Source: Methanobacteriota archaeon
Lineage (GTDB): Archaea > Thermoplasmatota > Poseidoniia > Poseidoniales > Poseidoniaceae
NCBI GenBank assembly: GCA_011522915.1
Contig: WTIA01000044.1
Span: forward strand, 1 to 44,904
Reading direction: 5' to 3'
Length of the DNA: 44,904 nucleotides
This document shows, piece after piece, positions 7,395 through 39,833 of the stretch; the stretch's first letter is position 1; every line of letters begins with the position of its first letter. The notes under the pieces were generated by a model, which did no database searches, was not told the DNA's origin, and saw only the letters and a list, made by a program, of their open reading frames with translations. The position numbers were made by a program, and so were the translations under genes.

Positions 7395-8852
7395 TCATCG
7401 ATTTTGAGTTCCACAAACCGGACAGAATCGCCAATTAGGATCAACACCAATTCTGCAACCTCTGCAGTGAAGTCCTGAACGAATCGTGGGTTGCATAGGT
7501 TGTACAGGTTGATTCCAACCTTGTTGTTGCTGCTGTTGTTGAGCGAGCCATGCTTGCTGTTGTTGCTGCTGCTGTTGTTGAGCGAGCCACGCTTGCTGTT
7601 GTTGCTGTTGTTGCTGCTGTTGTTGAGCGAGCCATGCTTGCTGTTGTTGCTGCTGGTTCATTGCTTGAGGTTGAGCCTGCTGCTGTTGATTTGGGGTGCT
7701 CTTTATTCCCGCTCTGATGGGCTTGACTGGTTTAGGTAGAGCCATTTTTTCCATAACATCGGGTTGAGATTTCAATTCTTCGAGTGTGACTTCGCCGTCA
7801 CCATCAGTATCTGCTTCTGAATGTAATTCTTCAGCTTGCTCTTCTTCCATACCAGTTGCTTCTACAATCTCTTGAACGGACAAACCGCCGCTATTATCGG
7901 TGTCTGCAGCAGCGAATGCTTCCTCGATTGTAGCCTCAGGTTCTGGTTCTGGTTCCGGCTCCGGTTCGGGCTCTGGCTCGGGTTCTGGCTCAGGCTCAGG
8001 TTCGGGCTCTGGCTCAGGTTCTAGATCCGGTTCTGGAGCCATTACGGAAAATGCACCTGCAAAGGCATCATCTGTCTTTTCTGATTCCTTTCGCTCATCA
8101 ACTTCTACAACAGGCTCTGTTACTTCAGGCAGTGGTACTGGTTCAGTAGAAGGGAGAGGCACTGATGTTTCTGCCACTATTTCTGGTTCAGTGGAAGGTA
8201 AAGGAGGCGCTGGTTCAGGTGATTTTTCCGGTTCTTTTGTTTGCGGTGCTTCAACAATTGTTGGTGCAACGTATGACGTTTCAACCTCTTTGGCGGTAGC
8301 ATTGCTACTTGCTAGACTTGATACTGGAGTAACGTGGCCTGCTACGTCAAAGCAGGCTTTTATTTCGGATGCTAGTGATAGTAAAGCATCCTTATTCGCA
8401 GCGGGATTTGATAGTAAAGATTCTACTCCGTTCAAGTATTTGGTTGCCTCTCCTGGACCGCCTGTTTGCTGAGCGATTGCGAATAGTTTTAGCAATCGCA
8501 TAGGGTCTGAAATTTCCTGTAACTGTTCTGATTCAGAATCTGAAAATTGACCTTCACTAATCGCCAATGCCAACTGTTCAGGTAGAGACATTACACCCAA
8601 ATGACCAGCGACAAGGAAGTAAATTTCACCTCCCTCACAGTTCAATCGTTCACTAGCCTCTTCGAAGTCGAAATCTCCTGGCTTCAAAACTAGGTCTGAT
8701 AGAAGTGAAAAGAATTTTTCAAAAGCATCTTCTCTTGACATTTCCATCATTTGATGGAGAGCATCTGACGATTCGAATACGCCAAAATAAGCTGCTGCAT
8801 CATCCACTTCAATACCTTCTGGCATTGAAACATCTGCAACATCTTCGCTCAA
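7395..8852 (-). CDS. Cytosolic low-complexity protein: globular N-domain, P/E/T linker with PPLP, (EP)14, two EF-hands, polyQ-AWLA repeats and a C-terminal zinc ribbon
   Basis: No signal peptide. EF-hand loops DTDNSGGLSVQE and DTDGDGEVTLEE match the 12-residue consensus. Q runs of 6, 11, 9 and 7 are separated by AWLA. The C-terminus is CRGC-x13-CPVC. TTG start at 8852 has GGGGGT 6 nt upstream. The alternative ATG is at 8825. Confidence 0.75.
   Translation of the reverse strand: MSEDVADVSMPEGIEVDDAAAYFGVFESSDALHQMMEMSREDAFEKFFSLLSDLVLKPGDFDFEEASERLNCEGGEIYFLVAGHLGVMSLPEQLALAISEGQFSDSESEQLQEISDPMRLLKLFAIAQQTGGPGEATKYLNGVESLLSNPAANKDALLSLASEIKACFDVAGHVTPVSSLASSNATAKEVETSYVAPTIVEAPQTKEPEKSPEPAPPLPSTEPEIVAETSVPLPSTEPVPLPEVTEPVVEVDERKESEKTDDAFAGAFSVMAPEPDLEPEPEPEPEPEPEPEPEPEPEPEPEPEPEATIEEAFAAADTDNSGGLSVQEIVEATGMEEEQAEELHSEADTDGDGEVTLEELKSQPDVMEKMALPKPVKPIRAGIKSTPNQQQQAQPQAMNQQQQQQAWLAQQQQQQQQQQQAWLAQQQQQQQQQAWLAQQQQQQQGWNQPVQPMQPTIRSGLHCRGCRIGVDPNWRFCPVCGTQNR
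7518..7691 (-). repeat. CAG/CAA (polyGln) tract containing three 39-45 bp units (Qn-AWLA)
   Basis: The plus strand shows GAGCGAGCCA(T/C)GCTTGCTG at 7541, 7580 and 7625, embedded in TTG/CTG runs. Confidence 0.9.
7935..8039 (-). repeat. Hexanucleotide (GGYTCN)n repeat encoding (EP)14 plus flanking PEPDL
   Basis: Direct reading: ggttctggttctggttccggctccggttcgggctctggctcgggttctggctcaggctcaggttcgggctctggctcaggttc. Synonymous positions vary. Confidence 0.9.
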
Positions 8853-8911
8853 TTCTTTACCCCCGTATCTTTCCCGAATTAACTACCCTTCTTGAGTGTG
8901 ATGCCTCTAGA

Positions 8912-11900
8912 TTACTCCTTGGACAAATCGATTATTGCTCTAGATTGCGGGGCTGACCATCCAGTAGTTTGTAATTGCATCAAAATTGAACGCTCATTAA
9001 TTCCGCCCTTTAGTGCGGTCTTTGTCCAATCAACAGCCGCTGCCCTGTCTGCTAATTCCTCAGTATCGAACAGATCTGGGTCGATTACAACTTTCGCTTT
9101 GCGAACCTTGCCATCCCCACTTACTGGCTTGCGTTTTGCCACTTTTTTGCCCGCAGTAGCCGCGCCAGAAGCCGGGCCACCGCGCTGTGGGCCTCTTGGG
9201 TCTGGACCACGAGAAGGTCCTGCGCTGGATGGACCTCTACTCGGGCCACCTGGAGGACCCCTGCTAGGTCCTGCAGATGGGCCTCTACTTGCACCGCCTG
9301 GCGGCCCTCTACTTGGTCCTGAGGTTGGTCCTCTTTGTGGTGAAGCGCCTGGAGGTCCTCTGCTTGGACCTCGTCCTTGTGGACCTGATGGTGGTCCACG
9401 CTGTGGACCTCTTTGTGGGCCAGATGATGGACCTCTTGAATTTCCTCTGCCGCCGAGTATTCCTGCCATGAAATCATCTTCATCATCGTCGTCATCATCG
9501 TCGAACCAGTCATCGTCGTCATCATCGTCATCGAAATCGAAGTCTCCACCTCTCATTCTAGAAATTATGATGGATACAAGTCCCAAGAACAGTAATCCCC
9601 CACCACCTGCTGCTGCATAGAATATCATTGGGTCCATTCCGAATATAGTCTCGTCTTCTTCAGTTGGTTCTGCTTCCACCTCGATTTTACATCCACTCGG
9701 ATATACATCGGCACCGGCGGGAGTGTTAGGACAAGCGTCTTCATCATCCATAATTCCGTCATTGTCGGTATCTGATTGGTATAGAGCGCATCCAAAGTTC
9801 AGTCTCGCTTCTTCTAGATACAATTCATTGATTTCCGTTCCTGGACACAAATCAGCATCGTCTCCATCTTGGTTATCTCCCCAGCCGTCTAAATCAAGAT
9901 CATCCCATTGTGTTGGATTGTCTGGGAATTTATCATCTCCCAACAAATCGCTATATCCGTCGCCATCTCTATCTAAGCAACCGTATCTTAACTTCTCTGT
10001 AGAATTACCCCACACATCAGGGCAGGCATCAGAAAAGTTTGCTCCAGGTAACTGAGAGTCTCCGTACCCATCTCCATCTCTATCTTGCCACTGGGTTACA
10101 TCGAATGGGAACGCATCACCTGTGTGAGTATCATTTAGAGCATCATAGGAATAGTTTCCTTTGAATCCGTCGCCATCTACATCTTCATCCAACGATGATT
10201 CATCGATACAACCATTTGCTAATACCTTGATTGGAGGCGGAGTTCCTGGGCATTCGTCTAGCAAATCATTGACCCCGTCAGTATCGGTGTCTTTTTGTGA
10301 GAGGTTGCATCCATTGTCATCGATTGTCAATTCTGGGTCAGAATCTGGACAATCATCATCTGGATCATTGACTCCATCTCCGTCCGAATCCACCTCTTTC
10401 TGCGCTGCTGAACAGCCATCATTGTCAACTGCGGTATCGATTGGAGTATCATCGCACTTGTCATCTCCATTAGAGACGCCATCTAAGTCATCATCAATTT
10501 GGAAATCTGAGCACCCAGCTTCGTTTACAGACTGGCCTTGCTGTGTGTTAGGACAATCATCCTCGCCGTCAGGTATGCCGTCTTGGTCTTGGTCCTCTTC
10601 CTGAGATTCAATAGGACATCCAATTCCAGGTTCTCCGTTGGGTTTAGTACCGTTTACCACGCCAAAGTCGTATGGGCAAGCGTCAGGGTTGTTTCCTTGC
10701 TGATTGTCACCCCATCCATCACCGTCGCTATCTGCTACTTGGGTTGAATCTGCAGGGAAGGCATCTGTTGAGTCCTCTCGACCGTCTCCATCAGTATCCT
10801 GACAGCCGTAATACGGAACGATAGTTTCACCTACTGAAGAGGTTGTTGAATTACCCCAAACATCAGGACAATTATCGAGATTTAATCCGCCCCTATTGGA
10901 ACCGTTATCCAATTCTGTCCAATTATTGGGATATCCGTCGCTATCGGTGTCATACGCCGCTGCAGGTATGGTTGGGAATTTATCTGGAGTTGTAGCTCCT
11001 TCAGACGAGTTATCCCCAAATCCGTCCCCGTCTGAGTCCGCCCATTGTGTTGGGTCTTGAGGCCACCAATCCGCACCGTCTTCCTCTGTCCAAGTGTACT
11101 GAGTTCCCCATTCATTATCTTCATACCAAGGGTCGGATGAACCGTCTGAGTCTGCATCTGGGCAGCCTTGCCGGTCTCTCCAGGAATATCCTTCAACGAA
11201 CCAACACCAGTCTCCATCTATAGGGTCATCTGGGTTGTCTCCATATCCGTCACCGTCGGAATCTGCATGTTGAACAGCATTGTATGGGAAGTAGTCTCCT
11301 GCTCTCTGAATAGATTCTAGTTCAACATTACAACAATCTGGTCCATGGTTATCGCCGAAAGTATCGAGGTCGGAATCCAAAGCCTGTTTCCAGTTTTCTG
11401 GGAATCTATCTCCTTTAATCGGGTCATCAGTCCAGCCGTCTTGGTCATCATCAGAACAACCTAATTCTCCCCACCAAGAGGTCCCATCGTCGTCATTACA
11501 GTCATCGTTGGCATCAGACCAGCCGTCCTCATCATAATCATCGCAGCCAAATCTGTCCAAGTTTGATTCACCATAATCAGATGGGCATGCATCTGCATGT
11601 GGCCCTGATGGATTGTCTCCAAATCCATCAGAGTCTGTGTCTTCCCATTGATTTCCAATGCTGGGCAGTGCATCGTGCGAATCTGGAATTAAATCCCTAT
11701 CCTCATCGCTTACGATTCTCATGGCGCTAAAATCGTTGGTAGATGATTGTGAATAAGCAATAACCAAATCGCCATCAACCAATTCCATACCAGCCATGTG
11801 TTCGGTGATTATTGACACGAATTTTGTTGAGGTTGTGATTCCTGAACCAGTAAAGGAACCCGTAGTCCAAACCAAATTATTGGAACCCAAATCAGAATTT

Positions 11901-14900
11901 GTAGATGTGATGTGCCACCTATCGCTATCGACTATGAAGTCGTGCTGTGTTTGGGAATCTGGGACATCCATTGAATGAACCGACCATGACCCATCAGAGG
12001 CACGATGAAGAATACCTTGGTCTGAATTATTGAAGTCATAGAGTGCATAACCACCTTTCATCACTAGAGTGTTGTTTAGATTTTGATTGCTCTGCAACAT
12101 CCACCTTTGATGGGCTGTAGACCAATTCCCACCAGTCAAGTTTCTTTCATACACCGTGAGGTATTCGCCATCGAGGATAGATATTGCTAGTTTGCCGGAA
12201 ACAAGTTCCAATTCAAATGATGAAGTTGTACTTGCGGGTGCAATATTTTCAACTGTATGGTTGGTACCGTTGAACTCAACCAATTGAAGGTATGTAGTAC
12301 CGTTTACTGATGCTATTTGAGCAATGATTAGATCGTTACCATAAGTCCAAATGGAATCAAAGTCATCACCAATTGTTGTATTGAGAATTGATACCTCGCT
12401 CCATGACCCATTTAATGTGTTAAGATATACCATCTTATCATCATCATCAACATAGACCATCCTTGTTTTGTCAGCAGAATCAACGTGAACTTTAATTGGG
12501 TACAATACGTCTATTGAAGAGCGAACTAATGAGGTAGAATAACCGTATTCGCCTTCAACCGTGTAAAATATTGATGAGAAACCTGGAGAAATGTGACCTA
12601 TTCTTTGCATACCGCTCAGGTCCAATGATGAACCCATTTCCTTTCCTACACCAGTACCGGTGTCCAGGCTGTAGTCTAGGCCTGTGTTTCCATCAACATT
12701 CATCGTGACCAGTGTTGGAGCACCAGAAATAGATTGCACGGCCAAAATTGTTGGCTTCCCTGCATTGGTTATACCCATTACCGCATCTTCTACGTCGCCT
12801 AGATATCGGAAATCCCATCGACCTGCAGAAGTCAATCCGTCAGGAGTGTTTTCTAGTATCATCAAACTTGAATCCGATAATTCAACCATCAACGAAGGAC
12901 TGCCACGCAGAGGGGTAAGCAAATCGATTCCATTCACCGATTCTGGGAATTCAAAGTTGACATTCTCCCAGTCTCTTTCCGACATTATTGTAAGCACAGG
13001 AGCGAAATTATCTCCTTGTGTTAGGTCTCTAGACGAGTATAACAACTCGCCCATCCCATCCCCGTCTAGGTCCATTCCTGTGAGCAAATTGAGACCAACA
13101 TACTGTCCTGATGATCCCTGTGCAAATAATTGAACATCGCTACGTGGGCCGTTTTCTGAACCCAGATACAAATTAACAGTTCCAGATTTTGATGCGGATG
13201 GCATCATTAACAAGAAGTCGTCATAGCCATCTTCATTGATGTCGCCTGCTGGTGAAATAGTATATCCCAATCTTGCGTTAGCGAATGGACCTTTCAATGT
13301 CCAATTCTTCACAGCTATTGTTTCATTACCGGACCACATGTGGACCTTACCGGTTTGATAAGGTGTTGTACTTGCAAATAATTCGCTGATAATTAGGTCG
13401 TCATACCCGTCGCCGTGTACGTCTCCAACAATCGACATCTCAAAGCCATACAATTTCCCTTGGTCCAGAGAAGAATGGGTATAATTGGGGTTAGAATTGA
13501 TTCCTTGTTCACTTCCCATGAAGAATTCTACTGAAGAATAACCCGTTGGGCTATCAATCGTTCCAGTGTTTGATACCACCATGTCAAGGTATCCGTCTCC
13601 GTTTAGGTCTCCTCTGGATGCAATTTGCCTTCCAAACATCGGCCCATATTCTGATTGGGTAATATTGGATTGATGAATCATTGCGGTTCTATTTCCTTTG
13701 AGGACCATTACCAAACCATTCTTTGTCAGAGTTGGCTGATTTTCGTTTTCTTCTATTAGTTTGTCAGCTACAATCGCTAAGTCATCACAACCATCTGATT
13801 CAACATCGCCTAGAGAAGTCATGGAAAAGCCGAGATTATCATCATCGGTACCATTCATCTCCCACCATGTCTCGGTCGAGATTCCTTGTGAGTTACCTAA
13901 CCTAATCGATACGTGTCCAGAGTTATTGACTGCCATGCCTGGTTCGCTTGAAGCGATATCATCAAACCCATCGCAATTAAAGTCGCCAATGGCAATTCCT
14001 TGACCTAGATTTGATTCGCTGAATGAGCCAACCAGAATTCTGTCTGCAGAAGCACTAGGTCCACTTGGAGAACCATAGTGAATCGAAATTGTGCCGTTTC
14101 CTTCAGGGTCAGTGTAAACCAAATCATCCATACCGTCCGCATTTAGGTCACCACTCAGAACCTCGCCTTCAGATGAATCATCATCGTATGTAATGACGCT
14201 TGTTGGTGTAGGATTTATTCTACCTGTGTCTTTTCCTGCAAGACTACGTAATAGGGAGATTTCATTGGAAGTGTTATCTGACTTAGAATAGGATATTTGT
14301 TCGATATTGTTTGAATCAAGATCCATCCCAATCGCATCTGTAATCGACATTCCTCTAGCTAGAACCTGACGCATTTCTGTAGTTTGATTGAACCTGAGAA
14401 GCCTTACTTCATTCTCGGATAAGTTGCTATGAGGATGGTAGGTGTAGACCACGTGAACCATGTCATGTGAATCGATTTTCACCTCAATATCTGAACCTAT
14501 TGGGCCTGCATCCAATAATGTTTGATTCCAAAATGCCTTGTTGAACCAAAGTTGGCGCAGGCCTTGGGTCTTACTATCCTTGAAGAAAATGTGAGTCCGA
14601 GATTCTGAATCAAATTCTAAGGTGAGACTGTCGGAATCGCTTTCATAAATCTCTTCTGCGATAGTTCTGATGTGCCAAGTTCTTTGGAGATAGACAGCAT
14701 TTGGTTCAGCTAACCGTGCTAGTCTAATGTGGCCTCCTGTCTCTTCGTTTGAACCATCCCAAATATCGTATGCGATTTGGATTCGATTTTCTTTTGTAAC
14801 ACCGATGGCGCAAGTGTCGGTTGAGTTTGCTCCAAGGTTTTGAACTACCAACGTGTCAAAACTGCCATTTTGGTGTAATGTGTGAAAGTAGACTTCTGTA

Positions 14901-15217
14901 TCATTGGTAGAACAAGCATATCCAAGGCCGGTTTCAGTGAGTACTAGGTCAATAGAAGAGACATCAGATTTGTTTTGAACTTCTTGAGTCCAATAGTCCA
15001 ATATAGATTCTCCACGAACAGTCCAATTTTTCCCATCGACGTTTATGACGTCTCCTTCTAAGTCATGTCCTGAGCCGGTAGAGAAGTCTACAGACAATGC
15101 CGCAGTATCATCTTTTTCCTCCAAGATGGGGATTGGAAATTGGAAAACTGGTGCTGAAATTTGTATCAAAAATATGGCGAGAATTGCAAGAGGCAGACCT
15201 TTGCTACGCCATGACAT
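8912..15217 (-). CDS. Giant type-I surface protein: signal peptide, beta-rich region, 7 FG-GAP (integrin-alpha-like) repeats, second beta-rich region, ~20 thrombospondin type-3 Ca-binding repeats, TM helix and a 215-aa cytoplasmic tail
   Basis: Single 2108-codon frame (track start 15238 is GTG, another GTG at 15229, first ATG at 15217 gives MSWRSKGLPLAILAIFLIQISAPV). FG-GAP motifs include GDLNADGMDDLV, GDFNCDGFDDIA, GDVESDGCDDLA, GDLNGDGYLDMV, GDVHGDGYDDLI, GDINEDGYDDFL and MDLDGDGMGELL. TSP3 motifs include DQDQDGIPDGEDDCPNT, DSDGDGVNDPDDDCPDS, DTDTDGVNDLLDECPGT and DTDNDGIMDDEDACPNT. TM helix is IFYAAAGGGGLLFLGLVSIIIS. Confidence 0.9.
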   Translation of the reverse strand: MSWRSKGLPLAILAIFLIQISAPVFQFPIPILEEKDDTAALSVDFSTGSGHDLEGDVINVDGKNWTVRGESILDYWTQEVQNKSDVSSIDLVLTETGLGYACSTNDTEVYFHTLHQNGSFDTLVVQNLGANSTDTCAIGVTKENRIQIAYDIWDGSNEETGGHIRLARLAEPNAVYLQRTWHIRTIAEEIYESDSDSLTLEFDSESRTHIFFKDSKTQGLRQLWFNKAFWNQTLLDAGPIGSDIEVKIDSHDMVHVVYTYHPHSNLSENEVRLLRFNQTTEMRQVLARGMSITDAIGMDLDSNNIEQISYSKSDNTSNEISLLRSLAGKDTGRINPTPTSVITYDDDSSEGEVLSGDLNADGMDDLVYTDPEGNGTISIHYGSPSGPSASADRILVGSFSESNLGQGIAIGDFNCDGFDDIASSEPGMAVNNSGHVSIRLGNSQGISTETWWEMNGTDDDNLGFSMTSLGDVESDGCDDLAIVADKLIEENENQPTLTKNGLVMVLKGNRTAMIHQSNITQSEYGPMFGRQIASRGDLNGDGYLDMVVSNTGTIDSPTGYSSVEFFMGSEQGINSNPNYTHSSLDQGKLYGFEMSIVGDVHGDGYDDLIISELFASTTPYQTGKVHMWSGNETIAVKNWTLKGPFANARLGYTISPAGDINEDGYDDFLLMMPSASKSGTVNLYLGSENGPRSDVQLFAQGSSGQYVGLNLLTGMDLDGDGMGELLYSSRDLTQGDNFAPVLTIMSERDWENVNFEFPESVNGIDLLTPLRGSPSLMVELSDSSLMILENTPDGLTSAGRWDFRYLGDVEDAVMGITNAGKPTILAVQSISGAPTLVTMNVDGNTGLDYSLDTGTGVGKEMGSSLDLSGMQRIGHISPGFSSIFYTVEGEYGYSTSLVRSSIDVLYPIKVHVDSADKTRMVYVDDDDKMVYLNTLNGSWSEVSILNTTIGDDFDSIWTYGNDLIIAQIASVNGTTYLQLVEFNGTNHTVENIAPASTTSSFELELVSGKLAISILDGEYLTVYERNLTGGNWSTAHQRWMLQSNQNLNNTLVMKGGYALYDFNNSDQGILHRASDGSWSVHSMDVPDSQTQHDFIVDSDRWHITSTNSDLGSNNLVWTTGSFTGSGITTSTKFVSIITEHMAGMELVDGDLVIAYSQSSTNDFSAMRIVSDEDRDLIPDSHDALPSIGNQWEDTDSDGFGDNPSGPHADACPSDYGESNLDRFGCDDYDEDGWSDANDDCNDDDGTSWWGELGCSDDDQDGWTDDPIKGDRFPENWKQALDSDLDTFGDNHGPDCCNVELESIQRAGDYFPYNAVQHADSDGDGYGDNPDDPIDGDWCWFVEGYSWRDRQGCPDADSDGSSDPWYEDNEWGTQYTWTEEDGADWWPQDPTQWADSDGDGFGDNSSEGATTPDKFPTIPAAAYDTDSDGYPNNWTELDNGSNRGGLNLDNCPDVWGNSTTSSVGETIVPYYGCQDTDGDGREDSTDAFPADSTQVADSDGDGWGDNQQGNNPDACPYDFGVVNGTKPNGEPGIGCPIESQEEDQDQDGIPDGEDDCPNTQQGQSVNEAGCSDFQIDDDLDGVSNGDDKCDDTPIDTAVDNDGCSAAQKEVDSDGDGVNDPDDDCPDSDPELTIDDNGCNLSQKDTDTDGVNDLLDECPGTPPPIKVLANGCIDESSLDEDVDGDGFKGNYSYDALNDTHTGDAFPFDVTQWQDRDGDGYGDSQLPGANFSDACPDVWGNSTEKLRYGCLDRDGDGYSDLLGDDKFPDNPTQWDDLDLDGWGDNQDGDDADLCPGTEINELYLEEARLNFGCALYQSDTDNDGIMDDEDACPNTPAGADVYPSGCKIEVEAEPTEEDETIFGMDPMIFYAAAGGGGLLFLGLVSIIISRMRGGDFDFDDDDDDDDWFDDDDDDDEDDFMAGILGGRGNSRGPSSGPQRGPQRGPPSGPQGRGPSRGPPGASPQRGPTSGPSRGPPGGASRGPSAGPSRGPPGGPSRGPSSAGPSRGPDPRGPQRGGPASGAATAGKKVAKRKPVSGDGKVRKAKVVIDPDLFDTEELADRAAAVDWTKTALKGGINERSILMQLQTTGWSAPQSRAIIDLSKE
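9173..9451 (-). repeat. Coding repeat: 13 RGP units with GPxx period-4 spacing (Arg/Gly/Pro/Ser-rich) in the cytoplasmic tail
   Basis: Translation RGPSSGPQRGPQRGPPSGPQGRGPSRGPPGASPQRGPTSGPSRGPPGGASRGPSAGPSRGPPGGPSRGPSSAGPSRGPDPRGPQRGG. Codons are heterogeneous, so the repeat is kept at protein level. Confidence 0.85.
9474..9547 (-). repeat. GAT/GAC run encoding DFDFDDDDDDDDWFDDDDDDDEDD, directly after the TM helix
   Basis: Direct reading of catcatcgtcgtcatcatcgtcgaaccagtcatcgtcgtcatcatcgtcatcgaaatcgaagtc. Confidence 0.9.
9689..11707 (-). repeat. Array of thrombospondin type-3-like DxDxDGxxDxxD calcium-binding repeats (coding)
   Basis: About 20 D-x-D-x-D-G motifs between residues ~1178 and 1850, many followed by C-P as in the TSP/COMP type-3 consensus. 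Confidence 0.8.
13004..14176 (-). repeat. Seven FG-GAP / integrin-alpha-like beta-propeller blades (coding)
   Basis: Seven copies of hydrophobic-G-D-x-[ND]-x-D-G-x-x-D-hydrophobic spaced ~55-65 aa apart, each followed by a G-x-V-x-hydrophobic-x-x-G strand (residues ~355-745). Confidence 0.75.
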
Positions 15218-15270
15218 ATCTCGACTCACAATCTTCACCCTACATTACTATTCCCAAAGTTTGCACATAC

Positions 15271-16755: not shown

Positions 16756-18012
16756 TCACCACCTCTTCCACATCATAGAGGAACGGTCCCACCAATCTAA
16801 TTCACCGTTTTCATGCTTTCTCCAAAGCATTCCATTTTCATCTATATGAGTAGGTAGTCCTTCAGAATCCGGCTCGCCCATTTCATTTAGCAACCCACCA
16901 AACAATTCATCATCCTCGGGACTTTTTATCATCAGGACAAATACTGCAATACCCAAGACCAATGAAAGTAGACCAATACCCCATATTCCTACACTGGAGG
17001 TCTCTGTATCCATTCCCTTGGATTGAGCAGGTGCGTTTTCGTCTTCAGATGTGGAATCGGGGGCAGGCATTCTGATTAGCATGGCACCATTTGTGGTGCT
17101 TATCTCCTCATCATTGGTTACAGTTAGCAATATCTTGTAAACGCCAGATTCCCATTGCGAACAATCGAGATTGCTTGTGTTGGCAACCATTCCAATCGAA
17201 GGTGTGATTTTCCAGTCCTTAGAGAAATCAGAATGGTCTTCGCTGCTGGATGGAGTATGAGTGATGCTGCAGGGTGTTCCAATTTTTGCATCGTTTCCAT
17301 TGACATCAATGGAGAAAAGAGGAGGAGGTTTGTTTACGATAACGAGTTCGAGAGTGTCGGTTGTTGTTTGCCCTAGGCCGTTTTGATAACTTTCTGTTAC
17401 AATGTAATTACCCGCAGGCCAGTTACTGCAATCAAGAACCTGTTCGGTTTCCAAAACGGTGAACGGGGTTCCGATTATTGACCGCGTACCTGGGAAATTC
17501 CACCTTGGCCCTGTCTCATCCACGAAGTCTCGAGTGATTTCACAATCATCACCCGTTTGCATAATTTCCGAACCAGATAGTACTAGGTCTATTTCGGGAG
17601 TTGCTAAGGCAGGGCTTAAATCAAAAATTCCAAGATTGATTGATTTCAATAAAATCCCATCAGCGTCGCTTATTTCCAACTGTAACTGGTGTTCTCCTGC
17701 CGCCCATGAATCATAGGTCAATGAAGCGTTTTCTTGATCTTCAAACGCCATGTAAATTTCCTCGTATACTGTGAAACCAGAGTGCTCTCCGATCAAAGTT
17801 AGAGTCAAGTCAACCCATTGGTTTGTTGAATTGATTACTACAACTACACGAATAGCATCCATCATTCCGTCTTGATTCATATCTAGACTATCATTTCTCA
17901 ATGCGACCAAATTCAATCCCGCCTCTTCGAAGGGGTCAATCTCTTCCTGCGCAGAAACTTGACCTGCAAAAGATAGTGAAACCATCAGTGCGATAAGTAA
18001 CCACTCACGCAT
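16756..18012 (-). CDS. Type-I surface protein (signal peptide, Ig/PKD-like beta ectodomain, TM helix, 56-aa cytoplasmic tail ending in a WW-like Trp motif)
   Basis: MREWLLIALMVSLSFAGQVSA signal. TM helix VGIWGIGLLSLVLGIAVFVLMI. Tail is ...HIDENGMLWRKHENGELDWWDRSSMMWKRW. The ATG at 18012 overlaps the upstream stop by 8 nt (ATGCGTGA), with GGAGGTGA 7 nt upstream. Confidence 0.75.
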   Translation of the reverse strand: MREWLLIALMVSLSFAGQVSAQEEIDPFEEAGLNLVALRNDSLDMNQDGMMDAIRVVVVINSTNQWVDLTLTLIGEHSGFTVYEEIYMAFEDQENASLTYDSWAAGEHQLQLEISDADGILLKSINLGIFDLSPALATPEIDLVLSGSEIMQTGDDCEITRDFVDETGPRWNFPGTRSIIGTPFTVLETEQVLDCSNWPAGNYIVTESYQNGLGQTTTDTLELVIVNKPPPLFSIDVNGNDAKIGTPCSITHTPSSSEDHSDFSKDWKITPSIGMVANTSNLDCSQWESGVYKILLTVTNDEEISTTNGAMLIRMPAPDSTSEDENAPAQSKGMDTETSSVGIWGIGLLSLVLGIAVFVLMIKSPEDDELFGGLLNEMGEPDSEGLPTHIDENGMLWRKHENGELDWWDRSSMMWKRW

Positions 18013-20455
18013 TTGATTCACCTCCCTTGTCCTCTTCGATTACTGCTTTTTCAAGCGAAGACGCCGAACGAGAATAACGGACAATCATCGCAAGTGCTGA
18101 TGAAATCAGCATAACAGTACCCAGAATCATGTAAGTCAACCAACTAGATGCCGGTTCTTCACCCATTACCGAGAAAGCTGCATTCCAACTTCCATACTCA
18201 TCTGACCAACCGTCACCATCTGAATCAATACAACCTTGCAAATCTTTTGTTGAAGTCCCTGCCACATCCGGACAGTCATCTCGCTTGGCACCCATAGGCA
18301 CATCACCAAAGCCGTCTTCGTCAGTATCTTGCCACTGTAGTCTATCGGTTGGAAAGGCATCTGCTTGACCCCATGGTGATGCTAGCCAATTTTGAGAGGG
18401 GTCTGACCAGCCATCGCCGTCTGAATCTCTACATCCAAGACGATCAAAGAAAGACTGGCCTCTCTCATTGGGGCAAGCGTCGCCTTCGTGTCCATCGGAG
18501 TTATCTCCGAATCCATCGCCATCCAAATCCCTCCATTGGGTTGGTTCGTGTGGGAACCTATCCCCTTGATCTGACCAGCCATCACCATCTGTATCATGGC
18601 AACCCCATCTATCCCCGCCAGCGGTTGGACCTTGAGATGTTCCTGGGACGTCTGGACAGACATCAGCAGTAATTCCCTTCGGATTATCGCCTCTTCCATC
18701 GCCGTCTCTATCGTGCCATTGCGTTTCATCAGCAGGCCAAGCATCTGCAATTCCACCAGGACTTGCTAACCAATGGGTTGTAGGGTCAGACCATCCATCA
18801 CCGTCTGAATCTGGGCAACCCCATCTATCCATGGCAGAATTACCTTCAGTAGCGACACAACCGTCTCCTCTCCAAGCAGGCCTCCAGGTTTCACCATCGA
18901 AATATTCTAGATTATCTCCATAACCATCATCATCGGTATCGTACCATTGACTTTCATCATCAGGAAATGCATCTGCGAACCCATCAGGGTGAGAAATCCA
19001 CCAGTCATCAGGATTGGAGAAGCCGTCCATGTCGGAGTCTAAACATCCAAATCTGTCCTGCCAACTTATCCAACCGCTCTCTACTTCTTCAACCGTACTT
19101 TGAGGGCAAACATCGCCTTCAAAGCCATTGAGATTGTCGCCATAGCCATCACCATCCGTATCCCTGTACTGGCTTGGAACTAGCGGGAAATCATCGACTT
19201 GTGTTGCGCCGTATGAATTGTTATCGCCCCATCCATCTCCGTCAGTATCTAACCATTGAGTTGGATTGTCAGGGAAATCATCGACTTGTAATGCTCCTTC
19301 GCTTTGATTATCTCCCCAACCATCACCATCTCTGTCGTGCCACTGTGTAGGGTTTTCAGGGAATGCGTCTGCCCCGTCACCAGCTGACCAATTTAGGTCT
19401 GGGTCAGACCAACCATCACTATCTGAGTCGGGACAGCCAAATCTGTCTTCCAATGAATAACCAGTAACGAATGGGCAAGCATCTGGTTGAGTCGCATTGG
19501 CATACCAAACCCCAATCGACCAATTAATTCGAGTGTCATTCCATGAACCATCAGCCCAATTATCTCCAAATCCGTCTTCATCTGTGTCGTTCCATTGGCT
19601 TGGAGTAAATGGGAATGCGTCAGCAGAACCGTTTGGATGGGCAAACCATGGCTCTACTCCATCAAGTCCACCTGGGTCAGCATCTGACCAACCATCTCCA
19701 TCCGAGTCGAGACATCCAAATCTATCCAGTTCTGAGTATCCTCTCCGATACGGACAATGGTCCGGTTCAAATCCATCTAGATTGTTTCCAAAGCCATCAT
19801 TGTCTGAATCCACCCACTGAGATGGTTGGGTTGGGAATGCATCTGCTCCATTGTTGGTAGTCCAACCACTGTCCGGGTCTGACCAACCATCGGAATCTGT
19901 GTCTATGCATCCCAGTCTATCGTTTGTAGAGGTTCCAGGAATGAGATCACAATCATCCTCATTGTCGATAAATCCGTCCTCGTCCCTGTCACGATTATCT
20001 TGATTTATGGATGGGGTTAGGGTATAGTCTACTCCGTCATTACACCAACTGTTTTTTCCTTGTATCTTTAGATAGACATAATCTGCAGTTGACATTGTAG
20101 TCGACAATACTGTTGAAGAACTGCCGTCATCCATTGCTTGGCTAGCAAGTTGAGAACCTGCAGAATTATGAATAGAAAAATCTGCTTCCCAACCATCTCC
20201 TGGACACCACCAAGCAGGGTTAGACATCGAACCTGAGAAGCTTACCTGAACGATATCACCCTTGTAGGCATATATCTTCCACCAGTCCGTCTTGTCAGTG
20301 GGCGTACATCCATCTGGGTCACAGACATATCCGCTTACAGTCACGCCATTGGTTAGTCCATTAGCTGATGCTAGGTCATTATCTGCTTCAACGGTTGGAA
20401 GGAACGTTAGCAGGGATATCGCGAGGAAACACACCACCCACCGCTCTGCGCGCAT
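18005..20455 (-). CDS. Type-I surface protein: signal peptide, PPC (pre-peptidase C-terminal)-like domain, long TSP3-type Ca-binding super-repeat array and a C-terminal TM anchor
   Basis: MRAERWVVCFLAISLLTFLPTVEA signal. The PPC-like pattern is DKTDWWKIYAYKGDIVQVSF...DYVYLKIQG...VDYTLTPS. Motifs DRFGC.DSDGDGWSDP and P.QW.D.DGDG[FWY]GDN alternate. TM helix is WLTYMILGTVMLISSALAMIV. Confidence 0.85.
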   Translation of the reverse strand: MRAERWVVCFLAISLLTFLPTVEADNDLASANGLTNGVTVSGYVCDPDGCTPTDKTDWWKIYAYKGDIVQVSFSGSMSNPAWWCPGDGWEADFSIHNSAGSQLASQAMDDGSSSTVLSTTMSTADYVYLKIQGKNSWCNDGVDYTLTPSINQDNRDRDEDGFIDNEDDCDLIPGTSTNDRLGCIDTDSDGWSDPDSGWTTNNGADAFPTQPSQWVDSDNDGFGNNLDGFEPDHCPYRRGYSELDRFGCLDSDGDGWSDADPGGLDGVEPWFAHPNGSADAFPFTPSQWNDTDEDGFGDNWADGSWNDTRINWSIGVWYANATQPDACPFVTGYSLEDRFGCPDSDSDGWSDPDLNWSAGDGADAFPENPTQWHDRDGDGWGDNQSEGALQVDDFPDNPTQWLDTDGDGWGDNNSYGATQVDDFPLVPSQYRDTDGDGYGDNLNGFEGDVCPQSTVEEVESGWISWQDRFGCLDSDMDGFSNPDDWWISHPDGFADAFPDDESQWYDTDDDGYGDNLEYFDGETWRPAWRGDGCVATEGNSAMDRWGCPDSDGDGWSDPTTHWLASPGGIADAWPADETQWHDRDGDGRGDNPKGITADVCPDVPGTSQGPTAGGDRWGCHDTDGDGWSDQGDRFPHEPTQWRDLDGDGFGDNSDGHEGDACPNERGQSFFDRLGCRDSDGDGWSDPSQNWLASPWGQADAFPTDRLQWQDTDEDGFGDVPMGAKRDDCPDVAGTSTKDLQGCIDSDGDGWSDEYGSWNAAFSVMGEEPASSWLTYMILGTVMLISSALAMIVRYSRSASSLEKAVIEEDKGGESNA
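18221..19993 (-). repeat. About 8-9 coding super-repeats (~55-75 aa), each pairing a Cys-anchored DSDGDGWSD motif with a DxDGDGFGDN motif
   Basis: At DNA level the imperfect unit GACCA[AGT]CCATC[NNN][NN]TC[TC]G[AT][AG]TC recurs near 18405, 18570, 18788, 19405, 19685 and 19880. Confidence 0.8.
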
Positions 20456-23539: not shown

Positions 23540-25783
23540 CTAATCCTTACGGCTTTGAAGGCTGGCAACAACACCCGCAATAGCAATCATTGCAAGTGTT
23601 AGAATCGGAGAGACGAATGGAAGAAGTCCTTCTTCGGTTTCTTCGGTAGATTCGCCCTCTGTTTCACCTTCCCCATCATTGTACTCTGCTAAAGCCTCCT
23701 CTAGGGCATCCTCGATGATGTCATCGTTGTGCTGAGTCAAGTCTACGAGATCTGATAGAGTTGTGTCATCTTCGATTTCAGCTTCTTGCACAATTGCTTG
23801 CTGTCCAGAGAAATATTTCACTGAAAGTTGAGCAGGGGCTGTTCCGTATGAATCCGATTCTGGTCCAATCAGAGTGTACCACATGTTGCTATCATCTGAT
23901 GTTACAACCATCTGGAATCCGACAACCATGTTGCTGTTTGTATCCCAAAGAACGAACATGTCGCCGTCATCGTATGGGAAGTCCGCTTCATATCCATCTA
24001 GGCGGTATTCTAGGTTTTCACCGAAATTTTCCATTACGTTATCTAGAGTTGACTCAGAGAATCCTTCTACTATATCCTCAAGTAATTGGCTTGGCTCCAT
24101 TTCTTGTGGAACATCTGCACATACTTCCAGAGTTTCAATGATGGTGTTATTATTCGTATCCTCTAATTCTGCAGTAACACAGTGTTCACCCCAAGAGTCC
24201 GAAGACATGTATGAATTACCCCAATAGTAGGAATCACTGAAATCCAGTGAATCAAAGCCTTCTGTAATGCCATCTGAATTTGTTAGAAGAATGTCGATTT
24301 CATAGTCTCCATAATCCAAATCCCATGCGCTTACGTACACGTCAATTTGATCTTGACTCGAGATGTACATTTCCAATGACAAGTAATCACCTTCTGCGTA
24401 AGCTTCATCTCCTCCGTTGTCTAGGCTTTCAAAGATTTCTTCTGTGCTATCTTCGACCATGTCAGCTAGTGTAGGTGCTCCATCAGTTCCTTCGAATGCA
24501 TGGATGAATAGGTTAGCAATATGGCAGGTCATTCCCCACGGTAGCGGAGATGTGTAAGCCTGCATTACCTCTATTTGGTCACCGTCTGTAGTAATCATTT
24601 GAGTTCCTTCAAACAATTCAATTCCCATCTCACAAAGGTACTCTTCGTCATCAAATACGCCTGAATCAGTTGCAGAATCGCTTGCAGAGACATCCCACTC
24701 TCCTGCAGGGAAGCCTAGTTCTTCAGCTGGTAATCCGGTTAATTCGAAATTAAAACCGGTTGAGGTTGAGAAGCCACCTTGATGTGGCTCGGCTTCGTCA
24801 CCCATGCTAGGACTTGTTTCATCATAGTAGTGAGTCCAATCCAGTGAGTTTGCCCAATCATCGTTTTGGTCGAAGTCATCAGTGCAATAGTACGTGTCAA
24901 AACTTGAATAATATTCGCAGTAATACCACCAATCGTAATCCCATCCATCGTCGGTGGTGCAGTCATACATCTCACCGTTCCATTCACAGGTCCAATCATT
25001 TGCATCGAAGTCTCTCCAGTAGACGTATTCGTCTTCGTCATTACCTACTTCCCATCCAAGGTCTTCTCCTCCTTGGAGTGCAGATAGTTGTTGGAATATA
25101 TCGCTTGGTTCAGTGTAAAGAACCGAGCTTTCTGCACTGTTTACAGAGTAGTCAACGCCCATCTCCATTTGGATATTCAATGGCATTACTTTGTCTCCAT
25201 CTTGCGCTTGAAGGCTTCCTTGTAGTCCAAATCCGTATGATTGGTCAGCATCCATAGACATCTCAAGATCATGACCGTATAGAAGGTCATCTGCATCACG
25301 GTACTCGATGTAATAAGCGTCTACATTGAATACTCCTTCAGCGCTTCCGGAAATCGTCAAATCCCAGCCTGCCCTTGCGTCAGACCATTCTGTGATAATT
25401 GCCATATCAGCAACAGAACCATGTCTAACAGTAAGTTCAGTTACATGCTTAGTAACTTCGACGGTGCCCCCGTTGTAATCAAGCATTGTTGTACCATCTT
25501 CATACTGGTCGATAATCATCGAAGATGTACCGGTGAGTTCTTCCAGAATCAGCAGGTCAATTCCAGCATCATCAGCGGACTGCATGACATCTGCCAAAAT
25601 TTCATCCAATGGGAGTCCTGTCATCGATTCAAAATCGGTGTCCATATCACTCCAATCGTATTCCATTCCGAATGCGAAGTGTTCGGTTGTGGTTTCATCT
25701 GCTGCAACATTTTGTGGTAACAGTGAAGCACACAAAAGAAGCGATAGCAGAACGGCGTTAATCCTTGAGAAGCTTTTGCTCAT
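23540..25783 (-). CDS. Hyper-acidic type-I surface protein (signal peptide, ~700-aa ectodomain, C-terminal TM anchor), unknown function
   Basis: MSKSFSRINAVLLSLLLCASLLPQNVAA signal. TM helix LLPFVSPILTLAMIAIAGVVASL followed by QSRKD. Very high D/E content. No domain recognised. Confidence 0.75.
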   Translation of the reverse strand: MSKSFSRINAVLLSLLLCASLLPQNVAADETTTEHFAFGMEYDWSDMDTDFESMTGLPLDEILADVMQSADDAGIDLLILEELTGTSSMIIDQYEDGTTMLDYNGGTVEVTKHVTELTVRHGSVADMAIITEWSDARAGWDLTISGSAEGVFNVDAYYIEYRDADDLLYGHDLEMSMDADQSYGFGLQGSLQAQDGDKVMPLNIQMEMGVDYSVNSAESSVLYTEPSDIFQQLSALQGGEDLGWEVGNDEDEYVYWRDFDANDWTCEWNGEMYDCTTDDGWDYDWWYYCEYYSSFDTYYCTDDFDQNDDWANSLDWTHYYDETSPSMGDEAEPHQGGFSTSTGFNFELTGLPAEELGFPAGEWDVSASDSATDSGVFDDEEYLCEMGIELFEGTQMITTDGDQIEVMQAYTSPLPWGMTCHIANLFIHAFEGTDGAPTLADMVEDSTEEIFESLDNGGDEAYAEGDYLSLEMYISSQDQIDVYVSAWDLDYGDYEIDILLTNSDGITEGFDSLDFSDSYYWGNSYMSSDSWGEHCVTAELEDTNNNTIIETLEVCADVPQEMEPSQLLEDIVEGFSESTLDNVMENFGENLEYRLDGYEADFPYDDGDMFVLWDTNSNMVVGFQMVVTSDDSNMWYTLIGPESDSYGTAPAQLSVKYFSGQQAIVQEAEIEDDTTLSDLVDLTQHNDDIIEDALEEALAEYNDGEGETEGESTEETEEGLLPFVSPILTLAMIAIAGVVASLQSRKD

Positions 25784-25837: not shown

Positions 25838-28800
25838 TCATATCTCGAGTTCTTCGTCAAGATATTCTTTGGACTCTCCTCCAAATACGCCCCAAGAATC
25901 TATCAAATCAATGTCTGCAAGTCGCTTTTTCCTGCGAATTACAAACCAAGCCAGTAGGGATGTGATTAACAATATCGACGCTATTCCACCTCCGATAATG
26001 AACAACGAGGAGTTATCGGTCTCTTTCTCAACAAATTCGATATTTATCGAGATGAAGTCTATCGTTTCGCCATCAAATGCTGTGACTTTGACCTGAGCTT
26101 TACCGCCTTCATTGGCAACGATGTCAATTTCTCCAATCCAAATCCCATCATTATTCTCATCCGATAAATTCAGATTCCATACCTGTAGGTTTTTTGTGAT
26201 TGTTGCGTTGATGTTGTTAGTGGTTCCATCTGGATCATCCAATACCACGCTAACAGTTACTGTAGTAACCTCATCCACAGGTACAAACTTGGGAGAAACT
26301 GTCAAATTGGATAAATCTGGGCTACTGGATGCAACGGTAATGTTTAGATGAACTTCGTCACTGCCACCTCTTCTATCTTCAACATAAAGAGAAATGTGAT
26401 GAACACCTGGTTCTAAGTTGGTAGTGAAAAACGCTGAGTTAGACATTACAGTCGGATATAATTCGCCTGTCGAATACAGCCTCCATTCCCTTTTCGTGAT
26501 ATCATTATCGGCATCCATTGTTCCATTTGAGTCTAGGATAATCAATTCACCAGGTTGATAGAATTGATTGTTCACTGGTTCGTAAACTACAACTTGAGGG
26601 TCTGATTCGACTACCAACAAAGTCACCTCTTCTTCTCTTGATAATCCGGTTTCATCAGTTAGTGTAAATGTTAACCTGTGCCCTCCAGCCTCTAGCCTAA
26701 GTTCGTGAATTTCAAGAGGATTAGAATCTGCGAGCAATACTCCCGAAATGTTACTGGATAAGTTGAATGTAAATTCATCCCCATCATAATCGATACTATT
26801 CCTAATATCAAAGTCGATAGCATCGCTCGATTTGTATCCAATACTTAGGTCGGGACTATCAAGGCTCAGCACTGGAGCAGAAGGGGCTACTTCTATGGTC
26901 AGACTAGAGGAAACCGGTTGATTGATTCCATCATCCATCGTTAATGTGATCGTGTGAATTCCGTTTGAAAGATGTGATTCGAAAATCAGCCAATCAGAAC
27001 CGTCTTCTTGCAAAACTCCATCGATATTAGATTCCCATTTGTAAATCAGGTATTCAGAGCCTGGTGCGGGTTCAAACTCTGAGCAATGCCAGTCTATTCC
27101 AGCAGGGAATGTATCGCAAGCGCTGTCATAATCCCCAGAGCCAGATGCATTGAACTCAAAGAGGTGACTAGAGTCGTGGTTCGAGGTCTCAACTGGGGAT
27201 TGAATTACCGCTTTTGGAGGACTATTTTTCACTATCAAAATCTCTGTTACTGTGCTGGTTGAGTTGACATGCTCCATTCTTCCATCGTTCACACTCAAAC
27301 TAATCACATGATTTCCTCTTGAAAGATAACCTTGCCAAGAGCTTTGGTTTGAGAGGATACCATCAAGAGAGGATTCCCACAAATATGTGATATTGTCACC
27401 CTCAGGATCCACTGTTGTGCTTACTAGACTGACCATATCTTCTGATAGATTACCTGAACGAATAATGTCGAATGATGCATTTGGCACCTCGTTGAAAAGT
27501 TCTACCGGAATCGTCCACTCTTCAGGAGAATTAATTCCGTCTGACACTGTAAGTGTCAAATCAAATGTGGAAACGACTTCATCAGCAAATGAAATATTTC
27601 CAGTTCCATTAGTGCAATTAGGTATTGATTGAGATTTACCTAGCCAATTCCAACTGCATGTCATGGCGTCGTTTTCTGGGTCATACGTTCCATTGAGGGA
27701 GAATTCAACCGGTTTTGTTATCGGCGATATTAACTCGCCCCATGGAGACAGAGCAGGGTCTGTACTAACTACAATCACTGGAGGCTGATTTGATAATTCA
27801 ATCGTTCTAGTTTCATCCACACAATTTCCTTTGTCGTCACATATTTCGAGTGTTATATCGTGTATTCCATCACTCAAACCGACGAAGTTTTGTGTACCTG
27901 AAACGTTATTTACAGTGAAAACCGAGTCGGTACCTTGCAATAACTGACCGTCTAGGGATGATGTCCAAGTGAAGGTCATCAAATCATCATCCAAGTCCCA
28001 TGACCTTGAGGCATTGAACAATATCTCGCTTTGGGAAGGATAAACAGTCTGGTCTGTGGGAGTATCCCACATGATGAAAGGTGCCTGATTTGACAGAGGA
28101 AGGTGACACCATACAGTCCTGTCTTGCGACAGAGATGTGTTAGTTGAATTTGACACGCCATCATAAGAGCAATCAATAGTCACGGTTGTGTAAGGACTTT
28201 CTCCAAGGCTGTTGTATTTCTTACCTCGCAAATCTGGGAAAAGAACTACTCCAAGGTCGCCAGTTGGATTGCCTATCGTAGATTCCAGTTGGTCAAAAGA
28301 AAGGGTTACAGATGCTGCAGGAACGCCATTCGAATTATTGTTTACAACCCAAACCTCAACGTTCCAGGCTTCTTCGATCCAGCCATTACCAACAATGGAT
28401 GCATTTGTGTAATCTATGTTTGTTGGTTGATGAAGATGGAGGTGAGAATTTGTATCCACATTCAAGATGTGACTTCCCATGTCACTGAAACCGGACCAAT
28501 TTAATTCTACATTTACGAAATTTAATTCTCCAGAACAATCGCTTGTGATGATGTTATTGTGGCCAGAAAGTTGGTCATGATTTGACAAATTCAAACAGCC
28601 TGTACCAGATAGATTTGCATTCGACAAAACGCTGTTTCTTTCGATGTTGTGATCTGCATCCCATGTAATTCCTCCATGATTACCATGCATCTCCAGTCCA
28701 TCTATTTGGCCTTCAGCACCACTGATTTCTACGGCTGGCCCACTGTGGTTAATCCATGTCTTTACGTTATCTAGGTAGAACATACCTCCCTGAACGCCTA

Positions 28801-33023: not shown

Positions 33024-33040
33024 GTACCGTTGCTAGGACT

Positions 33041-33074
33041 CATCAATCATGTTTCTTGCCCTTCCATGATTGCG
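33041..33074. promoter_or_regulatory. Inverted repeat CAATCATG-n13-CATGATTG (extendable with a 2-nt bulge) in the divergent STAND/uvrC spacer
   Basis: Read directly, inside the 86-bp spacer between ATG 33023 (minus) and ATG 33110 (plus). Function unknown. Confidence 0.3.
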
Positions 33075-33109
33075 ATGTATTCTTGATGGAATGTCCCTAC
33101 AATGCAAAC

Positions 33110-39804: not shown

Positions 39805-39833
39805 GAACAAGCCAGAAGGTCAAAACTATGAAA

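Follow-up and report, generated by a model that had tools for sequence, protein, structure and literature searches.

A giant propeller-bearing surface protein with a conserved cytoplasmic end, and its downstream neighbor gene, in a Poseidoniaceae archaeon

The locus and its giant surface protein

The window analyzed here, the whole 44,904-nucleotide stretch from position 1 to position 44,904 of contig WTIA01000044.1 (assembly GCA_011522915.1), comes from a Poseidoniaceae (Marine Group II) archaeon. Its subject is a gene for a giant surface protein, A, together with the gene directly downstream, B, and two further proteins, C and D, whose C-termini are rich in tryptophan. The Marine Group II archaea, as yet uncultured, rank with the most abundant archaea of the plankton; their attachment to particles or algae is inferred only from gene content. 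A first-pass annotation, made from the letters of the window alone, had proposed that the four genes build an outside-in adhesion and signaling network in which an integrin-like receptor is coupled, through proline motifs and WW-like modules, to a calcium-sensing cytoplasmic adaptor. The four open reading frames are as follows.

8912-15238, minus strand: gene A, a 2108-residue giant type-I membrane protein, adhesin-like
7395-8852, minus strand: gene B, a 485-residue cytoplasmic protein
16756-18021, minus strand: protein C, a 421-residue surface protein
42504-43202, minus strand: protein D, a 232-residue acidic soluble protein

Genes A, B and C lie in a slowly rearranging block with the order P816-C-[Lnb_N]-TPK-A-B-M29. 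The nearest locus to that of the window belongs to a Candidatus Poseidoniaceae metagenome-assembled genome, with protein identity of 83-94% over the block. The Pfam domain scan covered 24 large open reading frames of the window, A through D among them, and relatives of B were sought in one genome per GTDB species, with 262 species found to hold one. NCBIfam models applied to A, B, C, D and P816 returned nothing beyond partial matches of the TSP3 (thrombospondin type-3) and EF-hand types. No description of B, C or D was found in the literature, where only a general remark on thrombospondin genes and reports of bacterial integrin-type propellers turned up.

Gene A divides into the following regions, given with residue numbers of the protein.

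15134-15238, minus strand: residues 1-35, hydrophobic N-terminal segment or signal peptide, with hydropathy highest over residues 14-32
12899-14221, minus strand: residues 340-780, FG-GAP propeller of seven blades, each with its calcium loop (Pfam, loops and PDB matches)
9719-11656, minus strand: residues 1195-1840, Cys-rich stalk of TSP3-type calcium-binding repeats (motifs, Pfam and NCBIfam)
9554-9625, minus strand: residues 1872-1895, single C-terminal transmembrane helix (placed at 1875-1893 by hydropathy)
9470-9553, minus strand: residues 1896-1923, poly-Asp/Glu patch with aromatic residues beside the membrane, found in the 14 diverse ortholog tails inspected
9170-9469, minus strand: residues 1924-2023, Pro/Arg/Gly/Ser-rich low-complexity stretch with 12 RGP and 4 GPP
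8915-9169, minus strand: residues 2024-2108, basic patch KKVAKRK...KVRKAK followed by a conserved end domain (alignment A4)

Orthologs of A, found upstream of B in related loci, are about 2050-2180 residues long. The propeller is recognized by the Pfam models FG-GAP_3 (E 2e-9) and FG-GAP (E 3e-6), and its seven D-x-[DN]-x-DG loops fall between residues 364 and 731 at a spacing of about 57 residues; the top PDB sequence matches of A are the propellers of integrin alpha-V, alpha-IIb and alpha-5 (E 1e-10). The stalk carries 17 DxDxDGxxD motifs (residues 1200-1830), with 26 cysteines within residues 1130-1870, and is matched by the anchor region of the NCBIfam model PA1041 (E 4e-13) and, below the gathering score, by Pfam TSP_3 (E 4e-4). 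Thirty-six N-x-S/T sequons occur ahead of the transmembrane helix and none behind it, a distribution that fits a large portion outside the cell and a tail inside, and A is probably N-glycosylated. Domain matches, loops, the single membrane span and the sequons thus bear out the first-pass description of a giant that has a propeller of integrin type and a TSP3 stalk outside the cell and a Pro/Arg-rich tail inside it. As judged from its domain content, A is most likely a giant exported surface adhesin.

The 213-residue tail, rich in Pro, Arg and Gly, is predicted to be cytoplasmic from the type-I layout of the protein and from the domain types ahead of the membrane, which are extracytoplasmic ones. 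Its plan, in which the transmembrane helix is followed by an acidic-aromatic patch, a Pro/Arg spacer, a basic patch and the end domain, is kept in about 80 orthologs of A. Composition is also maintained, with Pro at 8-24% and Arg at 5-13% in the tails of nearly all orthologs; the Gly-rich RGP repeat is limited to the clade of the window. The end domain, with the motif [ED]R.[IV][LM]..LQ..GW...QS[RK].I, is still present in distant lineages, and its identity across loci runs from 40 to 96%, against 26-78% for the N-terminal ectodomain. It has no Pfam match and no PDB profile match at E<=10, and a likeness to UBA or RuvA domain III is not claimed for it. Stronger conservation in the end domain than in the ectodomain implies, if sequence conservation is a guide, a partner inside the cell.

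Two kinds of irregular gene model were met among the relatives. At three loci from long-read, pilon-polished assemblies (L001-L003) the giant gene is broken into three to eight open reading frames, and two proteins, P0319 and P0306, are frameshift fusions in which the tail of A is joined to the N-terminal domain of B. Both look like artifacts of assembly or gene calling, with no biology behind them.

Gene B and the tryptophan-rich ends of C and D

The protein encoded by B has no transmembrane segment, and its regions are these.

8850-8852, minus strand: start codon, TTG in the window and ATG at the same aligned position in close relatives
8307-8852, minus strand: residues 1-182, all-alpha N-terminal domain (AlphaFold2)
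7935-8306, minus strand: residues 183-306, disordered linker with PPLP/VPLP, DAFxGAF and a Pro-Glu repeat (alignment A1)
7770-7934, minus strand: residues 307-361, EF-hand pair (Pfam EF-hand_1 and EF-hand_7)
7707-7745, minus strand: residues 370-382, proline-basic motif LPKPVKPIR, with L372, P373, P375 and P378 invariant
7497-7706, minus strand: residues 383-452, Gln-rich stretch with periodic Trp (QQQAWLAQQ / QQGWNQ), in the MGIIa lineage only
7398-7496, minus strand: residues 453-485, zinc ribbon CxxC-x10-CxxC with QPTIRSG ahead of it, invariant in alignment A1

More than 500 homologs of B were detected. Those with a named source among the 120 listed all carry a Poseidoniaceae, Poseidoniales or broader archaeal label, and identity over the homologs listed is about 45%. 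AlphaFold2 models the N-terminal domain with a predicted local distance difference test score (pLDDT) of about 90 over residues 30-170 and a predicted template modeling score of 0.68. A Foldseek search of the PDB gave no significant analog of this domain, its best match having a TM-score below 0.3 and E>1, and Pfam gave no match at E<=10. A profile of the domain collected only 120 clusters, at 50% identity, among 1.84 billion representative proteins; in nearly all of these clusters the match begins at the N-terminus of the protein, and full-length members are 370-582 residues long.

Beyond this domain, B is a string of short conserved elements. PPLP lies at residue 216 and VPLP at residues 231 and 239, and the residues P217, V239, L241, P242, A263, F264, A267 and F268 of the linker are invariant in alignment A1. 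The EF-hand pair consists of two canonical 12-residue loops, DTDNSGGLSVQE and DTDGDGEVTLEE, that score above the Pfam cut-offs (E 1e-9) and are invariant within MGIIa; the zinc ribbon gives a weak match to Pfam DZR. All three features named for B by the first-pass annotation, the PPLP/PLP motifs, the EF-hand pair and the Gln-rich stretch, are present in the sequence of the window.

Distant members of the family retain the N-terminal domain, a Pro/Ala/Thr-rich linker with [DN]AF and a proline-basic motif related to LPKPVKPIR, and the zinc ribbon. The ribbon is seen in 12 of the 14 distant sequences retrieved, and the other two are frameshift fusions. EF-hands occur in just one of the 12 full-length distant members, and polyQ in none. 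Calcium sensing is therefore not a core property of B, and the EF-hand pair and the Gln/Trp stretch are, on this distribution, apparently later additions within MGIIa. The view of B as a calcium-sensing polyQ scaffold could apply at most to the MGIIa proteins and fails for the wider family. B is most likely a separate, Poseidoniales-restricted cytoplasmic protein whose helical N-terminal domain is followed by a disordered linker with short motifs and then by a zinc ribbon.

Proteins C and D end in the segments for which WW-like character had been suggested.

16759-16872, minus strand: C residues 384-421, Trp-rich module that closes the cytoplasmic tail, kept in 62 loci (alignment A8)
42507-42608, minus strand: D residues 199-232, Trp-rich module at the C-terminus, near-invariant in alignment A2

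C consists of a signal peptide, a transmembrane helix and then a cytoplasmic tail that ends ...GLPTHIDENGMLWRKHENGELDWWDRSSMMWKRW. The tail consensus from the 62 related loci is PD..GLPT..D..G.LWR.H.DG..DWWD.....W..W, and in distant lineages the terminus reads ...DWWDxxxGxW[VM]P[FY]; the module of C is rich in Trp, Arg and Lys. D ends ...DDDGVEWWKDDDGYWWYREPGQADWQPHE, and this end is kept across the 16 aligned members of its 526 homologs. With 64-97% identity across the family D is far more conserved than A or B and belongs to the most conserved proteins examined, yet it carries no annotation. Its residues 1-75 comprise a basic, Gly-rich N-terminus (MAKKKGGFGRIFGAITG...) and then a three-helix segment modeled at a pLDDT of about 80, and its middle region is acidic and modeled with low confidence. 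A resemblance of the D N-terminus to ESCRT-III was considered and dropped, with no hidden Markov model (HMM) support for it.

An HMM built from MGIIa C tails alone missed the tail of D. The likeness emerged once distant C tails were included and profiles were compared with profiles, hhalign then aligning 29 columns at a probability of 65% (E 6e-5). AlphaFold2 models the D module as a four-strand meander (pLDDT about 84), for which the best Foldseek matches in the PDB are single blades of YCF48, PknD and designed propellers, none of them significant (E>0.7). Superposition on the YCF48 blade gives a root-mean-square deviation (rmsd) of 1.4 Å over 33 residues with 27% identity, and the YCF48 and PknD matches together span an rmsd of 1.2-1.4 Å. 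In profile searches of the PDB, the best matches of the Trp modules are a designed propeller and the choline-binding hairpins of LytA, and a LytA hairpin is the top natural match of the C-tail profile (E 0.17). Our interpretation of the module is a pair of Asp-box-like hairpins (D-x-G-x-x-W) in tandem, completed by a closing strand.

Support for a WW domain was absent from every comparison made. Neither the C nor the D tail has a Pfam match at E<=10, and none of 15 C-tail sequences matches the WW model PF00397. Searches of PDB profiles with both modules returned no WW chain at E<=10, and the 50 highest-ranked Foldseek matches of the D model in the PDB, none of them significant, include no WW structure. 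Comparison by hhalign with 16 WW sequences gave the C tail a probability of 1.7%; for D it was 0.8%. The two tryptophans are 18 residues apart in both C and D, against 20-23 in WW domains, and what follows the second is W-x-P in D and in distant C tails and W-x-x-W in MGIIa C tails, where a WW domain needs W-x-x-P. The identification of the module as a WW domain is rejected on these grounds, the lack of Pfam, PDB-profile and profile-profile support and the spacing of 18, and the label "WW-like" holds only weakly, as a loose pattern. Part of the suggestion stands, in that the two tails do share one module: the ends of C and D are a single, previously undescribed cytoplasmic beta-module of about 35 residues, and not a WW domain. 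Among the 24 large open reading frames scanned, neither a WW nor an SH3 domain was detected.

Linkage of the genes and the readings it allows

Species loci centered on B, with 65-78 scorable for each adjacency and with A marked by its end domain, place A directly upstream of B in 77 of 78. The neighboring pairs are about as constant, however: B-M29 is kept in 69 of 72 loci, M29-M32 in 68 of 69 and TPK-A in 64 of 65, and the block members further upstream are present in 63 of 65 (Lnb_N), 59 of 65 (C) and 55 of 65 (P816). Because these functionally unrelated flanking genes are equally constant, the adjacency of A and B within MGIIa carries no specific information. In metagenome loci centered on A, B is downstream in 79 of 79, a count that adds little since these are close relatives.

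Of the more distant lineages of B, seven (L084, L090, L091, L093, L094, L095 and L096) have A upstream of B while the genes past M29 vary, and with these included the first-pass observation of B as the next gene on the same strand, directly downstream, cytoplasmic and provided with short conserved motifs, is supported. Four other distant lineages (L085, L086/87, L088/89 and L092) have B in the slot between TPK and M29 with no A, and so B does not need A adjacent to it. The B proteins of these A-less lineages are mostly shorter (376-417 residues, with one of 525) and are without EF-hands and polyQ. In the three A-less lineages whose contigs extend far enough upstream, P816 and a C with its Trp tail are still there.

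8853-8911, minus strand: spacer between A and B, 59 nucleotides, without an oligo-T run

Across loci the spacer has a median length of 58 nucleotides. Clade-specific conserved words occur in it about 45 nucleotides upstream of the B start; of 93 loci, 27 have GCATCAnnCTCAAGAAG and 17 have GCTTAAATG. The spacers also hold a Shine-Dalgarno-like GGAGG site; words and site may be the promoter and ribosome-binding site of B itself. A regular expression for the spacer words had no match in the A-less lineages, and the one apparent match noticed on inspection, in L086, has too little length to be counted.

C and D are placed differently. The stop of P816 overlaps the start of C by 17 nucleotides and the stop of C abuts the Lnb_N gene, so that P816, C and Lnb_N look like one operon; the TPK gene, on the opposite strand, lies between C and the A-B pair. 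P816 and C are jointly missing upstream of A-B in six species, being kept or lost together. D is a lone gene between opposite-strand neighbors about 27 kb from A, and no match to D occurs within 10 kb of B in any B-centered locus. The supposed linkage of four genes accordingly does not hold up, with synteny of A and B no better than that of flanking genes, C in another transcription unit and D far away. Nor does phylogenetic co-occurrence, offered with the first-pass annotation as a check, help the proposal: synteny does not discriminate, B occurs without A in the four lineages, and co-occurrence of A, B, C and D is uninformative because all four are family-wide. No system made of these four genes can be demonstrated.

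The reading we favor, with a confidence slightly on the positive side of even, takes A to be a calcium-stiffened, membrane-anchored adhesin whose conserved cytoplasmic end engages a partner, and B to be an independent cytoplasmic protein. Calcium from seawater would occupy the seven loops of the A propeller together with 17 or more sites of the TSP3 type, and the filled sites would stiffen the Cys-rich stalk and hold the integrin-type propeller away from the cell. The propeller, to judge from its domain family, would bind particles, algal surfaces or other cells. One transmembrane helix would anchor the protein, and the tail would present to the cytoplasm its acidic-aromatic patch, a flexible Pro/Arg-rich spacer, the basic patch and a small end domain, the last of which would engage the intracellular partner. 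For that partner B is the leading candidate, though a tentative one that we would sooner expect to fail than to succeed. Several points weigh against the favored reading. The adhesin role of A is inferred from domain families only, and the end domain is only presumed to be helical. A is never found without B immediately downstream in any of the three sets of loci counted above, and an oligo-T run (T5+) occurs in only 1 of 72 A-B spacers; the constant order and the terminator-poor spacer fit a real two-gene unit better than chance neighbors.

Such a unit is the most serious competitor. The end domain of A, its spacer or both would dock the N-terminal domain or the motifs of B, linking the adhesin to a multivalent scaffold that in MGIIa would respond to calcium through its EF-hands. 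The shared strand and short spacer speak for it, as does the persistence of the pair even where identity in B falls to about 30% and the genes past M29 differ; the high conservation of the A end domain and the cytoplasmic, motif-bearing nature of B would suit a docking pair. The constancy of the unrelated pairs TPK-A and B-M29, the four lineages in which B keeps its slot without A, the spacer elements that may give B a promoter of its own, and EF-hands that are not ancestral all count against the unit, and we consider it possible but doubtful. The full proposal of the first-pass annotation, in which the Trp modules of C and D bind the PPLP/PLP motifs of B and the Pro-Arg repeats of A in calcium-gated outside-in signaling, asks for much more. 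In its favor, each of the four elements has a predicted place in the cytoplasm or on the cytoplasmic side of the membrane, B keeps its V-x-L-P and LPKPVxP motifs without variation in a disordered linker, the Trp module is conserved and predicted to fold as a meander, and C sits two or three genes ahead of B in almost all lineages, A-less ones included. Set against this are the failure of every test for WW homology and the lack of an SH3 domain in the 24 open reading frames scanned, an unlinked D, a C that belongs to another transcription unit and is missing with P816 in six species, a Gly-rich RGP repeat confined to one clade, EF-hands and polyQ that are not ancestral, and a co-occurrence that four family-wide genes explain. 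We regard this network as very improbable, the weakest of the readings considered.

Two narrower ideas concern the Trp module. It might be a self-associating, blade-like beta unit that forms an oligomer or a propeller-like assembly, or a Trp/Arg-rich anchor that tethers the C tail and D to the membrane surface, in either case with no role as a peptide reader. The single propeller blades found for the D model (YCF48, PknD and designed single-blade propellers), the designed propeller and LytA hairpins found by profile, the Trp-, Arg- and Lys-rich composition of the C module, and the basic, amphipathic-looking N-terminus of D all point this way. The matches are insignificant (E>0.1), however, save for one repeat-summed match at E 0.002, and the strong acidity of the D module speaks against lipid binding; we judge this explanation unlikely. 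Rather less credence goes to an archaeal peptide reader, WW-like in role only, that would dock the V-x-L-P/LPKPVxP motifs of B, the Pro-Arg spacer of A or both, with the A end domain also docking on the N-terminal domain of B. If it were true, peptide-reading Trp modules and A-B docking would together make a membrane-proximal adaptor network coupling TSP3-type surface proteins (A and P816-C) to the cytoplasm, calcium-gated in MGIIa.

Under the favored reading, a family-wide giant adhesin with a cytoplasmic end more conserved than its ectodomain suggests that binding at the surface is connected to the cell interior. To our knowledge, such a link is not usually attributed to prokaryotic adhesins. 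Three lineage-restricted elements, the B N-terminal domain, the A tail-end domain and the C/D Trp module, stand out as targets for structural and binding work, and the attractive picture of eukaryote-like WW/integrin signaling is removed as unsupported.

Large anchored surface proteins are unusually many in the window, comprising A, P816, C and proteins of 747, 1521 and 1040 residues. These and other neighbors include the following.

18005-20455, minus strand: P816, 816 residues, with a signal peptide, a C-terminal transmembrane segment and 5.5% Trp; very acidic
23540-25783, minus strand: 747-residue surface-type protein with a signal peptide and a C-terminal transmembrane segment, 170 Asp/Glu against 12 Lys/Arg, and no Pfam match
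25838-30403, minus strand: 1521-residue surface protein with beta-helix and PKD domains and a C-terminal transmembrane segment
30981-33023, minus strand: 680-residue protein, weakly PadR-like at its N-terminus, with an AAA/STAND-type NTPase
32981-34834, plus strand: uvrC
38878-39810, minus strand: cyclophilin-type peptidyl-prolyl isomerase; signal segment at the N-terminus, transmembrane segment at the C-terminus

P816 has 18 DxDxDGxxD motifs of the TSP3 type, yet no Pfam match. The cyclophilin-type isomerase appears to be extracellular and membrane-anchored, and the 5' end of the PadR-like/NTPase gene overlaps the start of uvrC.

Comparison with known systems

With integrin alpha subunits A shares seven FG-GAP blades, a single transmembrane helix, a cytoplasmic tail and the PDB matches described above. 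It differs in having no Thigh/Calf legs (no Pfam match to Integrin_alpha2), the TSP3 stalk standing in their place, and in having about 340 residues ahead of the propeller. The KxGFFxR motif is missing behind the membrane, where the sequence instead reads RGGDFDFDDDD..., and no beta subunit (beta-I/VWA-like) is encoded among the large open reading frames of the window. Integrin alpha tails are short, and the tail of A is much longer. Bacteria have integrin-type seven-blade FG-GAP propellers in which each blade holds a calcium loop (Chouhan et al. 2011, PMC3192720); A agrees with them in its loops and has a transmembrane helix, whereas those proteins have none.

The stalk of A resembles thrombospondin type-3 proteins in its 17 motifs within a Cys-rich region, to be compared with the 18 of P816, and differs in a Pfam TSP_3 score below the cut-off. 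Within Poseidoniales, thrombospondin genes are already on record as widespread and as genes for adhesion (Rinke et al. 2018, PMC6461757), and in the parts of that paper concerned with them neither a conserved cytoplasmic tail like that of A nor gene B is discussed.

The Trp module is like a WW domain in being a short (about 35 residues), Trp-rich, cytoplasmic, predicted beta-meander, for which D and the C tails of distant lineages show the loose pattern G-x-x-W...DG...[WY][WY]...W-x-P; it differs in showing no HMM or profile likeness and, in the D model, in having four strands rather than three. The Asp-box (BNR) hairpin reads S-x-D-x-G-x-T-W, beside which D has T-x-D-x-G-x-x-W and x-x-D-x-G-x-x-W, with structural matches to blades of the Asp-box propeller YCF48 and of PknD at a non-significant E>0.7. 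Unlike propeller blades built on Asp boxes and unlike choline-binding repeats, the module is a lone cytoplasmic C-terminal unit, with no repeat array and no closed propeller. The two canonical 12-residue loops of B are those of calmodulin-like EF-hand lobes, but its single pair sits in a long disordered linker with the N-terminal domain on one side and the zinc ribbon on the other.

By this comparison A is a prokaryote-type FG-GAP/TSP3 surface protein of the kind already noted in Poseidoniales, and not an integrin. The B N-terminal domain, the A end domain and the Trp module are uncharacterized and restricted to this lineage, and what is unusual about A itself is its long, conserved cytoplasmic tail.

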